64,000 bases of DNA from Bacteriovoracia bacterium (GTDB lineage Bacteria > Bdellovibrionota > UBA1018 > CAIPTA01). The translations under genes were made by a program, and so were the position numbers. Shown piece by piece: positions 37,077 through 41,703 of this stretch (position 1 is its first letter; each line of letters opens with the position of its first letter). The DNA lies in NCBI GenBank assembly GCA_050246755.1, contig JBFWVL010000001.1, positions 128,001 to 192,000 on the forward strand. The letters are read 5' to 3'. The notes beneath the pieces are model-generated. The model had not been told where the DNA came from. It saw only the letters and a program-made list of their open reading frames with translations, and searched no databases.

Positions 37077-38150
37077 ATGTTTAACTACAGCAAAATTCAG
37101 GAATCCCTCGGCAAAGACGCAGCGAACCTTCTGGGCTTCAAAAATCCCAAGGTTTCCAAAGATGTACTCACGCTGCCCGGCCCAGATTTTGTGGAACGCG
37201 TATTTCTGCAGTCGGACCGCAACCCCCAAGTGCTCCGCTCCCTGCAAGCCATGTACGGCCACGGCCGCCTAGCAAATACGGGTTATTTATCGATCCTTCC
37301 CGTAGACCAAGGGATCGAGCACTCGGCCGGCGCCTCTTTCGCCCCGAACCCCGCTTACTTTGATCCCGAAAATATCATTCAGCTCGCCATCGAAGGCGGC
37401 TGCAACGCCGTGGCCACCACGCTCGGCACGCTCGGGCTCATGTCGCGCAAATACGCGCACAGAATTCCCTTCATCCTGAAGATCAACCACAACGAGCTCA
37501 TGACCTACCCAAACAAGTTCGACCAAATCATGTTCGCGCAGGTGAAGCAGGCCTGGGACATGGGTTGCACCGCCATTGGCGCCACGATTTATTTCGGCTC
37601 CGAAGAATCCGGCCGCCAGATCGTGGAAGTATCCAAGGCTTTTAAGCAAGCGCATAGCTTGGGAATGGCCACGATCCTCTGGTGCTATACGCGCAATAAC
37701 GCCTTCAAAGTAGACGGCAAAGATTATCACACCGCCGCCGATCTCTCGGGCCAGGCCAACCATATCGGCGCCACGATCGAAGCCGATATCGTGAAGCAGA
37801 AAATGCCCACCATCAACGGCGGCTTTAAGGCGCTGAACATGGGCAAGAGTTCTTATGGAAAACTTGACGAGAAGATGTATACCCAGCTTTCGAGCGATCA
37901 CCCGATCGACATGACCCGCTACCAAGTGATCAACGGCTATATGGGCAAGATCGGCCTGATCAACTCGGGGGGCGCGGCCGGCGCGAACGACCTCGAAGAA
38001 GCGCTCTCCACCGCCGTGATCAATAAGCGCGCGGGCGGAATGGGATTGATCTCGGGACGCAAAGCGTTCCAGAAGCCGATGAAAGACGGCGTGGCTCTCC
38101 TGCAGGCCATCCAAGACGTTTACCTCTGCAAAGAAGTTACGATCGCGTAA
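37077..38150 (+). CDS. fbaB: Class I fructose-bisphosphate aldolase
   Basis: [20 protein letters not shown] and [10 protein letters not shown] motifs; AGGAG RBS before ATG 37077. Confidence 0.95.
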
Positions 38151-38155
38151 GCGCG

Positions 38156-38692
38156 GTGGTGAACCCTAAAAAAATCGTGGTGATCGGCGACAGTTGCGCC
38201 GGGAAAACTACGTTGGCAAAAACGCTCGCTTCCGCCTTAAACGTAAAACACGTGGAACTCGACGCGCTTCACTGGGAACCGGGCTGGAAAGAAGCCGATA
38301 AAAAAGCATTTCAGGAACGATTGACGGCGGCGCTAACGGATGAGAGCTGGGTGGTAGACGGAAACTATACCAGTAAAACGGAAGAACTCGTTTGGACACG
38401 CGCCGAGATGGTGATCTGGCTGGATCCTCCGCTCGCGACGATTCTTTACCGCTTCGTATTGCGGTCCTTCACCCGCGCTTTTACCCGTGAAGTTCTATGG
38501 GATGGATGCCGCGAGAGCCTGCGCAATAGTATTTTCAAAAAAGATTCCCTGCTGGTTTGGATTCTCACCACGCACCAACGCCGAAAGAAACAATTCTCCG
38601 CGCTGATGACTGCCGGACAATATCCTAATATCGAGTTTTTCCACGTAAAGACGGCCGCAGAACGCCGAGCACTGTTAAAAAGATTTATTTAG
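38156..38692 (+). CDS. Adenylate-kinase-like P-loop protein (FlaR/topology modulation family)
   Basis: GDSCAGKTT, ELDALHWEPGW and WVVDGNY motifs. Confidence 0.85.
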   Translation: MVNPKKIVVIGDSCAGKTTLAKTLASALNVKHVELDALHWEPGWKEADKKAFQERLTAALTDESWVVDGNYTSKTEELVWTRAEMVIWLDPPLATILYRFVLRSFTRAFTREVLWDGCRESLRNSIFKKDSLLVWILTTHQRRKKQFSALMTAGQYPNIEFFHVKTAAERRALLKRFI

Positions 38693-38774
38693 CTCCAAGA
38701 GTTTAACTTGTCTCTTGCCGAAAGCCCCTCCTTACGCTATTTCTTAGCCGCCATTTTCAAACCTGGGGAATTCC

Positions 38775-39386
38775 ATGAAAAAATTCGCACTCGCCACTTC
38801 TTTGATCCTAGCCCTCACCGCGTGCGGCGGCAACGATAGCGGCACCGCTTCTTCCACCCTGGGCTCCGACGGCAGCCCCCAAGTAGCCATTCCCGCCGAT
38901 GCCACCACCCAGGATTATACCTGCCGGGTAACGCATGTTTTCAGTGATAACGGCGCCCCCGAAGAGACCTCCACCTTTGATTACTCCGGGGTAATTCACG
39001 ACTGGCAAGAAGGAGACCTCTTCGTTTCCTTCGATTGGGATTCCAGTGGCAACGAAGCCTACCTCACGAAGGTGCGTTCGGAGAAAATCACCGAGATCCA
39101 GAAACGATCCTTCATCCAGCAAACCCACTGGGAACGCGAAAACGGCGCGTGGATCCAGACCGTAAAAAATATTGAGAGAGTTTCGGAGCGCGAAAACGGC
39201 CAGTTCCGCGTGATCTCCAATAAGGTAAACGGCGTGGAAACGCCCTATGACTGGAACGCGGAATTCACTCCCGTGAACGATAACCAGTTCAAGGAAATCC
39301 GCCGTCACAAAGATCCCAGCTCGAGGAATAAAGATGGGATCCGCTACTCGAAAATCGAGGATGTCTGCAGCTATACCAACCGCTAG
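38775..39386 (+). CDS. Hypothetical lipoprotein (beta-rich)
   Basis: Lipobox LTAC after the signal peptide. Confidence 0.8.
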   Translation: MKKFALATSLILALTACGGNDSGTASSTLGSDGSPQVAIPADATTQDYTCRVTHVFSDNGAPEETSTFDYSGVIHDWQEGDLFVSFDWDSSGNEAYLTKVRSEKITEIQKRSFIQQTHWERENGAWIQTVKNIERVSERENGQFRVISNKVNGVETPYDWNAEFTPVNDNQFKEIRRHKDPSSRNKDGIRYSKIEDVCSYTNR

Positions 39387-39401
39387 AAATCACCAATAAG
39401 C

Positions 39402-39434
39402 AAAAAGCTGGCGCCAATCGCGCCGGCTTTTTTT
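39402..39434 (+). terminator. Intrinsic terminator (possibly bidirectional)
   Basis: AAAAAGCTGGCGC-CAATC-GCGCCGGCTTTTTTT. Confidence 0.8.
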
Positions 39435-39441
39435 ATGCCTG

Positions 39442-39664
39442 AAAAAGGTGAAGCCCCACTCCCTGAGGAAGAGTGAGGCTTCGGTGTGGCCAGCTGGCTC
39501 ACACGATCGATGGATCGCGCCCGCTAGGTGGATGGAGACACCTAACGGAAAGTACTAATCTCTCGGATAACTGAGGGGGCCGAGAAACTAGGCGATTTGT
39601 CTGGGGGAAAAAATTCTAAAGAGCCGGGATCGTGGAGACTCTGGTTGTGAAGGAGCAGCGGGCG
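39442..39664 (-). ncRNA. Candidate novel structured sRNA (about 220 nt) with C-rich loops
   Basis: Own promoter and terminator; about 6 hairpins whose G-U wobbles work only on the minus strand; 8-bp long-range helix; no ORF in the track. Confidence 0.7.
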
Positions 39665-39670
39665 AGGAGA

Positions 39671-39699
39671 GTTATACGTCCGGAGCCGCTAAAATACAA
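39671..39699 (-). promoter_or_regulatory. Sigma70 promoter TTGTAT-N17-TATAAC
   Basis: Near-consensus hexamers with an exact 17-nt spacer, directly upstream of the structured region. Confidence 0.7.
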
Positions 39700-39738
39700 G
39701 TAAAATAGTCAGGAATTTACTGGTTTAAAATCAACAAC

Positions 39739-40203
39739 TTAGGGACTTGCCTGGAGCATCAGGCCCTCGATCGCGATCGCGCCCACGGCATTCTTCACTC
39801 CGTAGTAGCTCTGGAGAAGCACGGAGCCGTCCGGCTGGGGGTGGAGCTTGAGATTATAGGCGTAAGAAACACCGCCGCTCCGGGAAACGGTGATGAGGGT
39901 AGTGTCGGTGATAGTGCCCACCTGCTCTTCGTCTTCCCCCTCACCCTCGAATACTTTTCCGTCCCGGATCGTCTGCGCTACCGGCCCCCAATTGGAATCA
40001 TAGGTTCCGCAATTGGCGCGGTACTGCTTGGTGAGAAGGAGCCCCTCTTTTTGCTCGATCACGATTTCGATCTTCGAGCAATCACCCTTGATGCCCACGG
40101 TGCTATTGATCTTTCCGGTGGTGGTGAGCCAGTGGCCGGAGAAATTTCCCACGGCGAAGGCGGGGGTGGAAACTAGAGCGGCGAGTAAGAATAGAGTTTT
40201 CAT
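39739..40203 (-). CDS. Secreted hypothetical protein (small beta-barrel-like)
   Basis: Signal peptide ending AFA; NFSGHW lipocalin-like start; Cys pair. Confidence 0.75.
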   Translation of the reverse strand: MKTLFLLAALVSTPAFAVGNFSGHWLTTTGKINSTVGIKGDCSKIEIVIEQKEGLLLTKQYRANCGTYDSNWGPVAQTIRDGKVFEGEGEDEEQVGTITDTTLITVSRSGGVSYAYNLKLHPQPDGSVLLQSYYGVKNAVGAIAIEGLMLQASP

Positions 40204-40273
40204 AAGTAGACGCTACCGCAGCCCTGCGGAGAGAGCAAATGACGCGCATCTTAACCAAAGGTGCCTGACACCA

Positions 40274-40867
40274 TCAGCGGCGAAATACCAAATCCCAGCA
40301 GATTTCCCCGCGCGCCAAATATTTCTTCTCAAAATGCGTGCGCGGCTCGGCGTGAGCGGGAACGATACCTTCAGTTACAAGTTCGAGGCCCCACTCTCCC
40401 GTAATTTTCTCCTTCGCCCCCGCCCGATAAAAATCCATATTCGTAGCGAGAGTCAATAAACCACCCACCCGCATGGTCTCCACGATCACCGAGAAAAACG
40501 GCATCTCGTGGAAACGCAAATTCCGCTGGCTCTCTTTTGGATAGGGGTTGGGATACAGCAAAAAATATCGGTCCACCGAACCGGGCGAAACCCCGTGCGT
40601 GATCCAGGGAATCGCGTCGCCGTGAATCGCCCGCAAATTCGGCAAGGCCGGGTGGTGCGCCAGTCTTCCTTGAAACCGCGCGAATTTCTCCGCCGTGCGC
40701 TCGAAGGCCACTAATTGCCGCCCGGGATTCTCGCGGGCGTATTTCAAAGGATGAAATCCCACGCCGCAGCCTATTTCAATATCCAAAGGCATGCCCGTAC
40801 GCAAAGCCAAGGGAGAAAAATCCGGAGGCAGCGGAATTTTCTCCCGCGGAAAAACGCGCACGATCAA
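40274..40867 (-). CDS. trmB: tRNA (guanine-N7)-methyltransferase-like protein
   Basis: DIEIGCGVG, YPNPYPK, LATN and THFEKKY (divergent TrmB motifs). Confidence 0.75.
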   Translation of the reverse strand: MIVRVFPREKIPLPPDFSPLALRTGMPLDIEIGCGVGFHPLKYARENPGRQLVAFERTAEKFARFQGRLAHHPALPNLRAIHGDAIPWITHGVSPGSVDRYFLLYPNPYPKESQRNLRFHEMPFFSVIVETMRVGGLLTLATNMDFYRAGAKEKITGEWGLELVTEGIVPAHAEPRTHFEKKYLARGEICWDLVFRR

Positions 40868-41703
40868 CCCATTTTCTTGGATTGGGGATCGAGGGCATCG
40901 CGGAGACCATCGCCCAAAAAGTTAAACGCCAGGATCGTGAGGAAGAGCGCGATGCCGGGGAAAAAAATCAAATAGGGATAGGTGCGGTAGGCGCGCCAGC
41001 CTTCGTTGGCGAGGGTGCCCCAGCTCGCGAAGGGCGGCTCGAGCCCGAGGCCCACGAAGCTCAGAAAACTTTCCGCCAAAATATTCTGGGGAATCCCGAA
41101 CGTGAGGCTCACGATCACCGGCCCGAGAATATTGGGCAGGATATGCTGGAACAAAATCCTCGTGCTGCGCATGCCAAGCGAGCGCGCCGCTTCCACGTAG
41201 AGCATTTCTTTGGCCTGCAGCACTTGCCCGCGCACAAGCCGCGCTTCCCCTACCCAGCCCACGATCCCGAGCGCCAGGAAAATCCCCAAAGGCCCCCGGC
41301 CCACCACGAGCATGAGCATCACCGTCACGAGCAGCGAGGGCAGCGCCAATAAAATATCCGCGGCCCGCATCATCACGGTATCGATCTTGCCGCCCGCATA
41401 GCCCGAGATGGCGCCATAGACGGTGCCGATGACCAGGGAAAAAATCGCGGTGAAAAATCCCACCGCCAGCGAAATGCGTGCGCCGTAGAGGATGCGGGAA
41501 AAAAGATCGCGGCCCAGGGAATCGGTGCCGAACCAGAAAGTGGAATTAGGAAACTGCAGGGCCTGATCAGCATCCTGGGCGAAATAGGAAAATTTCGTGA
41601 GCCAGGGCGCGAGGATCGCCACTAGCGAGAGCAGAAGCAGAAAGCCGAGGCTCACCATGGCTAGGCGATGACGCTTCAATCTTTTCCAGGCTTCGCCGTA
41701 CAT
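40864..41703 (-). CDS. oppC: Oligopeptide ABC transporter permease
   Basis: FGTDSLGRD, YVEAARSLG and HILPN motifs. Confidence 0.92.
   Translation of the reverse strand: MYGEAWKRLKRHRLAMVSLGFLLLLSLVAILAPWLTKFSYFAQDADQALQFPNSTFWFGTDSLGRDLFSRILYGARISLAVGFFTAIFSLVIGTVYGAISGYAGGKIDTVMMRAADILLALPSLLVTVMLMLVVGRGPLGIFLALGIVGWVGEARLVRGQVLQAKEMLYVEAARSLGMRSTRILFQHILPNILGPVIVSLTFGIPQNILAESFLSFVGLGLEPPFASWGTLANEGWRAYRTYPYLIFFPGIALFLTILAFNFLGDGLRDALDPQSKKMG

Follow-up and report, generated by a model that had tools for sequence, protein, structure and literature searches.

A candidate lineage-specific, multi-hairpin small RNA downstream of a secreted-protein gene in an uncultured Oligoflexia lineage (Bdellovibrionota)

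The DNA analyzed here is a window of 64,000 nucleotides (nt) that corresponds to positions 128001-192000 of contig C1 in a 3.55-Mb bacterial genome assembled in 10 contigs and 95.7% complete. Within this window, a candidate structured RNA sits on the minus strand between two convergent secreted-protein genes, sec154 and lipo203, neither of which belongs to a Pfam family. Downstream of the RNA, two terminators are followed by the convergent lipo203 gene. We consider it quite likely that the locus encodes a functional minus-strand RNA, and its probable identity is a lineage-specific, Hfq-independent small RNA (sRNA) whose sequence also makes up the 3' end of sec154 transcripts. The features are collected in Table 1. 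RNA positions are given as 39667 minus the window coordinate, and the 225 nt that were folded run from 39666 to 39442 on the minus strand.

The fold of the candidate RNA stands apart from its genomic background. On the minus strand, the 225-nt RNA has a minimum free energy (MFE) of -86.3 kcal/mol and a z-score of -7.54, with none of 200 dinucleotide shuffles folding as well, whereas the plus strand reaches a z-score of -3.26, with 2 of 200 shuffles as good. Removal of the terminator left the two strands at -6.34 (minus) and -3.26 (plus). The controls came from 71 other intergenic regions of the genome, from which 142 windows (184 nt each) were folded; these had a mean z-score of -0.23 (standard deviation 1.2) and a minimum of -4.2, and none was at or below -6. 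A preliminary description of this DNA, made from the sequence alone, had noted that the wobble positions of three stems form G-U pairs only on the minus strand, and six such pairs were indeed counted, one in hairpin 1, two in hairpin 2 and three in the terminator. Given these six minus-only pairs, the z-score background and the asymmetry between strands, the structure signal and the strand assignment are regarded as sound. Altogether, the fold statistics and the terminator scan support what had been proposed at the outset, a strand-specific RNA of about 220 nt that carries no annotation, folds into several hairpins and ends in a terminator of its own.

Table 1. Features of the candidate RNA, its neighboring genes and the housekeeping RNA genes of the same genome. 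Coordinates are those of the window unless a contig is named; X3 and X6 are metagenome runs that hold near-identical copies of the RNA; bp, base pairs; aa, amino acids; ORF, open reading frame.
Feature	Coordinates	Strand	Description
Candidate sRNA	39442-39666	minus	about 220 nt; putative start near 39664 from the -10 spacing, putative end in the U-tract 39446-39442
-35-like hexamer TTGTAT	39694-39699	minus	unchanged in the X3 and X6 relatives
-10-like hexamer TATAAC	39671-39676	minus	spacer of 17 nt to the -35-like hexamer; no change in X3 or X6
5' strand CGCCCGCU	39657-39664	minus	RNA positions 3-10; two rival partners
AGCGGGCG	39525-39518	minus	complement of CGCCCGCU; RNA positions 142-149
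Hairpin 1 AGAGUC/GGCUCU	39620-39642	minus	RNA positions 25-47; 6 bp; loop UCCACGAUCCC; in MFE and centroid folds; pair probability 0.98
Hairpin 2 CUAGUUUCUCGG/CCGAGAGAUUAG	39555-39591	minus	RNA positions 76-112; 12 bp with two G-U pairs; loop CCCCCUCAGUUAU; pair probability 0.999
Hairpin 3 UAGGUG/CACCUA	39525-39544	minus	RNA positions 123-142; loop UCUCCAUC; pair probability 1.0
3' domain	39484-39518	minus	RNA positions 149-183; two small hairpins in the fold of the preliminary description; in the MFE fold, a single hairpin and the strand that pairs with the 5' end
Intrinsic terminator	39442-39482	minus	14-bp stem 39482-39450 with 3 G-U pairs; loop CCUCA, then ACCUUUUU; called by terminator scan
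Second, bidirectional terminator-like hairpin	39401-39433	both	GGCGCG..CGCGCC extended by GCC/GGC; A-run on one side, T-run on the other
sec154	39739-40203	minus	154 aa; signal peptide (read by eye); directly upstream of the RNA on the same strand; no Pfam match
lipo203	38775-39386	plus	203-aa ORF; lipoprotein signal (read by eye); convergent to the RNA
6S RNA gene	C3:142935-143113		82.7 bits
Signal recognition particle (SRP) RNA gene	C1:1501249-1501347		61.7 bits
Transfer-messenger RNA (tmRNA) gene	C7:96352-96704		
RNase P RNA gene	C1:1178213-1178617		305 bits

The elements from which the RNA had originally been recognized, that is, the promoter-like TTGTAT-N17-TATAAC, the hairpins with their loops, two further hairpins and the terminator, could all be read on the minus strand. 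The second terminator-like hairpin lies beyond the RNA's own terminator; it was called by the scan at 39424-39410 on the minus strand and received weak Rfam terminator-type hits on both strands. This hairpin would serve lipo203 on the plus strand as well as any read-through from the RNA. From the sec154 stop codon (39739) to the RNA (39666), the scan found no terminator-like site, so that sec154 transcripts must run into the RNA, which is thereby also the 3' end of the sec154 messenger. No same-strand gene lies downstream of the RNA, either here or in the X3 relative, in which a convergent aldolase gene takes the place of lipo203. Because the neighboring genes are convergent, there is no downstream gene that the RNA could regulate in cis as a leader or riboswitch.

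The closing of the structure at its 5' end was the one element of the preliminary fold that held only in part. An 8-bp helix between positions 3-10 and 142-149 had been proposed, and the complementary strands are present and able to pair, with a free energy of -79.7 kcal/mol when this helix is forced, compared with -86.3 kcal/mol for the MFE fold. In the latter, a stronger competitor is found, as positions 4-14 of the 5' strand pair with positions 167-178. The pair probability of the 8-bp helix is about 0, and it appears in neither the MFE fold nor the ensemble. It is, on the other hand, the best fold of the first 152 nt of the RNA. Hairpins 1 to 3 and the terminator are common to both folds.

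Near-identical copies of the RNA were found only in contigs of four other metagenome runs. Apart from two runs that may be the source of the genome itself, five other runs contain about a fifth of the sampled words, and four of them (X3, X4, X6 and X7) were compared. The RNA and its promoter-like block differ by 0-3 substitutions in these contigs, and the adjacent sec154 gene differs by about 11% in the relatives. In X3, the stretch 39429-39700 carries 3 substitutions (U10-to-C, U100-to-C and U113-to-A) and one deleted U of the U-run, in contrast to 143 substitutions over 39701-41000 (Fisher p = 3e-9). Within the X3 copy of sec154, 22 of the 30 listed substitutions fall at third codon positions, and since about 23% of third positions have changed, the neutral distance on the sec154 side is large. 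X6 shows a similar profile, with 3 substitutions in 266 nt of the RNA block against 19 in 115 nt of the next stretch (p = 3e-8). Going upstream from the block, X3 and X6 both first differ at 39701, which is one base past the -35-like hexamer; the 34 nt of 39667-39700 are unchanged, and the next 38 nt up to the stop codon hold seven listed changes.

Additional information came from the remaining runs. Over 210 nt of the RNA, X4 shows 2 substitutions together with 3 gaps, whereas its two flank contigs have 14 substitutions over 238 nt (p = 0.005); this argues weakly for conservation specific to the RNA. The last loop base of hairpin 2 is changed from U to C (39567) in X3, X4 and X6. A 152-nt contig of X7 is identical over 39444-39593; this run is labelled RNA-Seq but marked as probably DNA and was not used as expression evidence, and no RNA data set is listed among the sequencing runs that contain the sequence. 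In X6, the contig with the RNA ends at 39656 and the next one starts at 39658, which leaves out the exact position of the U10-to-C change of X3. This contig break at 39657 suggests that both alleles coexist in that sample.

The surroundings of the RNA differ between these relatives. The 16.3-kb X3 contig holds, in order, the aldolase gene, a 35-nt joint, the terminator, the RNA, sec154 and the methyltransferase gene, and it lacks 38152-39415. In our genome, this 1264-nt stretch forms an island made up of lipo203 and kinase178, a 178-aa P-loop kinase-like ORF with weak matches to AAA_18, SKI and AAA_33. The island is located exactly between a gene end and that gene's terminator; in its place, 35 other bases join the aldolase stop codon of X3 to the bidirectional terminator. 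The entire gap between the aldolase gene and the TrmB-like methyltransferase gene (38150-40274) is a variable spot within the genus, and four features occupy it in our genome. The two genes directly adjoin in genomes G003 and G004, and a 329-aa membrane-protein ORF lies between them in G002; no RNA is present there in any of these genomes. On the other side, oppC and the methyltransferase gene are about 900-1000 nt apart in same-genus genomes (with a 298-aa ORF between them at locus L086) and overlap in ours. The best relative of the aldolase gene, at 83% identity, comes from a metagenome-assembled genome labelled Oligoflexia. The RNA itself is single-copy in its genome, unlike a repeat element.

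The gene upstream of the RNA belongs to a small family of uncharacterised secreted proteins of about 150 aa, which share two invariant cysteines and 29 invariant columns in our alignment A2. Thirteen relatives with 43-72% identity were found among 5.8 billion proteins; P0003-P0007, which come from Logan and JGI, are at 60-72%, the JGI protein P0004 at 70%. Homologs were matched in 13 of 127 genomes of the class. The distribution is patchy, with the strongest matches in four genomes of another family of the class (G070, G107, G076 and G060) and weak ones in the genus itself, and a weak paralog is encoded in the same genome at C1:607958-608314. No related RNA was seen downstream of the gene at any of the more distant homolog loci that were inspected. 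What follows the homologs is a tandem repeat at L100 and a convergent ORF at L101, and a weak covariance-model hit (13.9 bits) at L106 was discarded since it falls inside a coding region. The repeat at L100 (735-860), a metagenome contig, consists of the final ~30 nt of the homolog gene (..CAGAAGCTCAGCATCAGCTGAGCG..), tandemly repeated about three more times.

The sequence did not match any known RNA family. At the gathering score, Rfam gave no hit in the whole window apart from one tRNA, and no family of Rfam 15, including RsaE, 6C, riboswitches, HEARO and Y-RNA-like families, matched the 751 bases around the locus at E values up to 10. Sub-threshold hits consisted of terminator-type matches around 39349-39492 and, within the core, a single 38-nt fragment match with E 4.7. 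The Rfam comparison that the preliminary description had recommended therefore identified no known family. Its view that the RNA is not a 6S, SRP, tmRNA or RNase P RNA also agrees with the data, as none of these families hit the locus and the genome carries its own copies elsewhere.

Other identities were considered and set aside. A CsrA/RsmA-sequestering RNA was rejected because there is a single GGA, which is inside the terminator stem, although CsrA is encoded in the genome (C1:1612944-1613099). An origin from HIP1 or cyanobacterial DNA, suspected from GCGATCGC near the locus, was dismissed with 8 sites counted against 4.6 +/- 2.4 expected. The words GUCUCCA and CCUCAG each occur twice in the loops of the RNA, and they were not accepted as protein-binding motifs, as by our own estimate a repeated 7-mer is expected about once per random 225-mer.

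The candidate can be compared with several types of known regulatory RNA. The sRNAs of enterobacteria that derive from 3' untranslated regions (3' UTRs), like DapZ and CpxQ, share the 3' end and terminator of a messenger and depend on Hfq. The candidate is similarly located directly downstream of a same-strand coding gene, with no terminator between them and with a shared terminator, but its promoter-like element comes after the stop codon and not within the coding sequence, and Hfq was not found in the host. The C-rich-loop sRNAs of Staphylococcus, Bacillus and Mycobacterium have stable hairpins and C-rich, G-poor loops, and they act independently of Hfq. Stable hairpins, C-rich and G-poor loops and an intrinsic terminator are also features of the candidate, and its host has no detectable Hfq or ProQ. 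Unlike these RNAs, however, the candidate is about twice as long, belongs to another phylum and may contain a multi-way junction; moreover, it has no Rfam match at E up to 10, and the anti-Shine-Dalgarno character of its loops stays within what base composition gives. Representatives of this Gram-positive group are the Rsa RNAs of S. aureus with their UCCC motif, RsaE/RoxS and the mycobacterial 6C RNA (PMC2790875, PMC5419742, PMC6486639).

Closer in phylogeny are the attack-phase sRNAs of Bdellovibrio bacteriovorus. As reported in PMC3627812, APsRNA1-7 range from 98 to 655 nt and are lineage-specific, with no homologs outside the species; merRNA of the same organism is described there as an orphan riboswitch with no downstream ORF, and the FliA motif TTAAG-N16-CCGATA is reported for three of the attack-phase sRNAs. 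The candidate is comparable to them in phylum, size, intergenic position, strong structure and lack of homologs beyond the immediate lineage, and it shares with merRNA the lack of a downstream ORF. It differs from these three in that the FliA motif is not present upstream, and from merRNA in that neither c-di-GMP nor other riboswitch families hit it in Rfam at E up to 10.

The composition of the unpaired parts is what suggests a mode of action. The 99 unpaired bases comprise 44 C, 31 U, 20 A and 4 G. C-rich motifs are exposed in the loops UCCACGAUCCC, CCCCCUCAGUUAU and UCUCCAUC, and a linker reads UUUUUUCCCCC; CCCCC occurs at RNA positions 60-64 and 88-92, and there are three CUCC motifs. Neither Hfq nor ProQ was found in the 95.7%-complete genome. 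An Hfq-independent pairing mechanism through C-rich loops is plausible for such an RNA.

In the explanation that we favor, transcription would start near 39664 from the weak sigma-70-like promoter TTGTAT-17-TATAAC and would stop at the intrinsic terminator (39482-39442). The product would measure about 220 nt, and the same sequence would double as the 3' end of the sec154 messenger. By thermodynamic prediction, the RNA would fold into three stable hairpins followed by the 3' domain, and two helices that exclude each other would be available to its 5' end for closing the structure. The G-poor, C/U-rich loops and linkers may then pair with purine-rich regions of messengers, typically ribosome-binding sites, without Hfq or ProQ. 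This pairing would alter how several targets are translated or how stable they are, as with the Gram-positive C-rich-loop sRNAs. Taken as a whole, this explanation, a clade-restricted, Hfq-independent trans-pairing sRNA gene, is put forward tentatively and stands somewhat below the level that we would call probable. Pairing, considered separately, may be the most likely of several mechanisms, and it is no firmer than the whole.

A number of results weigh against this explanation, amongst them those on homologs. No homolog of the RNA was found by blastn in 40 relatives, and a single-sequence covariance model recovered only the RNA's own copy and an 18.7-bit hit in G025 from 127 genomes of the class. 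This hit (E 0.004 per genome) was not accepted as a homolog, since one of this strength is expected by chance over 127 genomes. In five same-genus genomes, the covariance model gave no hit at E up to 1. Similarly, blastn against 401 genomes of the phylum gave only matches of 21-29 nt, exact patterns had no match in genome and metagenome contig collections, one 24-nt pattern had none in viral contigs, and blastn found none in phages and plasmids, so that there is no indication of a mobile element. Judged from these sequence searches, the RNA appears to be confined to a narrow clade within an uncultured lineage of Oligoflexia (Bdellovibrionota).

The variation among the close relatives and the promoter add further points of this kind. 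None of the known changes (3 substitutions and 1 deletion) is compensatory, and the U10-to-C change of X3 (39657) breaks a predicted U-A pair in both models of the closing helix. The contrast in X4 weakens to p = 0.10 when its 3 gaps are counted. Additionally, the last 152 nt of the X3 aldolase gene contain 1 difference, compared with 3 in the 272 nt of the RNA block (p = 1.0). As this aldolase end is equally conserved and adjacent to the RNA block, the sharp boundary at 39700/39701 could be a recombination breakpoint and not the limit of a unit under selection. A sigma-70 consensus scan called 0 sites at the promoter hexamers of the RNA, because TTGTAT matches the consensus at 3 of 6 positions and TATAAC is without the final T. 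In favor of the promoter, the hexamers resemble TTGTCA-16-TATATT, which stands upstream of the genome's own 6S RNA gene.

The results on target pairing belong here as well. The loops had originally been described as anti-Shine-Dalgarno-like, a claim that did not hold up against base composition: CUCC, CCUC and UCCU tetramers occur 8 times, compared with 6.75 +/- 3.06 in 5000 shuffles (P = 0.38), and the seven unpaired segments pair with 3299 crudely called translation initiation regions no better than dinucleotide-shuffled segments do. The same segments pair slightly better with initiation regions than with internal coding windows. In the target prediction, which had also been proposed and which used crude gene calls of a single genome and no conservation filter, the top targets were at about chance level. 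For example, loop 1 has a 12-nt perfect match at -8 to +5 of a 975-aa ORF (C1:1260259), and about one 12-nt perfect match is expected by our own estimate. Nothing special was predicted for the neighboring genes as targets.

These observations have to be weighed together with other explanations of the locus. Since no terminator-like site separates sec154 from the RNA, the element may not be an independent gene but a long, structured 3' UTR of the sec154 messenger, which would act in cis, by protecting it against 3' exonucleases and ensuring efficient termination, or would be processed into a 3' UTR-derived sRNA. The failure of the promoter hexamers in the consensus scan would fit, as would the joint retention of sec154 and the RNA in X3, where kinase178 and lipo203 are absent. 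We nevertheless find this explanation rather unlikely, as 39667-39700 are predicted to be unstructured and yet are unchanged in X3 and X6, which a promoter explains better than a UTR; moreover, the more distant sec154 homologs (L100, L101 and L106) have no such element downstream, and near-identity over the whole length exceeds what a stabilising hairpin needs. An account with no functional RNA at all would instead regard the locus as well-folding intergenic DNA inside a recently exchanged segment of low divergence, with a breakpoint at about 39700. It draws on the equal conservation of the adjacent aldolase 3' end in X3, on the variability of the locus within the genus (G002, G003 and G004) and on the recovery of only near-identical copies with no compensatory change among them. 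Its weakness is the fold, as z-scores of -6.3 to -7.5 lie well below the minimum of -4.2 in 142 intergenic windows, and the signal is strand-specific, with six G-U pairs and a called terminator at the right place. Since, in addition, the X4 RNA has proportionally fewer substitutions than its two flanks (p = 0.005) and the conservation boundary coincides with the -35-like hexamer, such an account is unlikely.

Other explanations keep a functional RNA or product and discard the pairing. A structured RNA that binds a protein or a small molecule, as an orphan aptamer or sponge in the manner of merRNA or 6S RNA, would agree with a fold that is an extreme outlier, with loops and linkers that are as conserved as the stems in close relatives and with the lack of a downstream gene, and the orphan riboswitch RNA without a downstream ORF, described in PMC3627812, is a precedent from the same phylum. 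The 5' strand has two strong alternative partners (-79.7 vs -86.3 kcal/mol), and the two mutually exclusive closing helices could serve as a conformational switch; alternative helices are, however, frequent in MFE predictions. Even with E values of up to 10 allowed, neither riboswitches nor any other Rfam families match, and the locus offers no candidate for a ligand or protein. Aptamers and housekeeping RNAs also tend to be widespread, in contrast to the extremely narrow distribution seen here, and this explanation is quite unlikely. It would go further, and be improbable, to take the element as the founder of a new class of RNAs in predatory-type Bdellovibrionota that are structured but do not pair. 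Its 5' strand would then toggle between the 3-10/142-149 and 4-14/167-178 helices as a conformational switch, and the RNA would be made from its own promoter as well as forming the tail of a secreted-protein messenger. Six ORFs of 23-42 aa that overlap 39400-39720 could also point to a small protein or a type I toxin-antitoxin pair encoded at the locus. All six begin with GTG or TTG, though, none is hydrophobic or toxin-like and several cross terminators; the unpaired parts of the RNA contain only 4 G, and the sole GGAG lies inside the terminator stem, so that a coding function is very improbable.

What would a trans-pairing, clade-restricted sRNA at this locus mean? Bacterial genomes contain many lineage-specific sRNAs, and the candidate answers no long-standing question. 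Its practical value lies in being a well-delimited candidate, with a promoter, a fold and a terminator, for the mapping of metatranscriptomes from landfill or wastewater samples. If real, the RNA would add to a very short list of sRNA candidates from Oligoflexia, which as a class is known almost exclusively through metagenomes, and it would exemplify Hfq-independent RNAs with C-rich loops beyond the Gram-positive bacteria.

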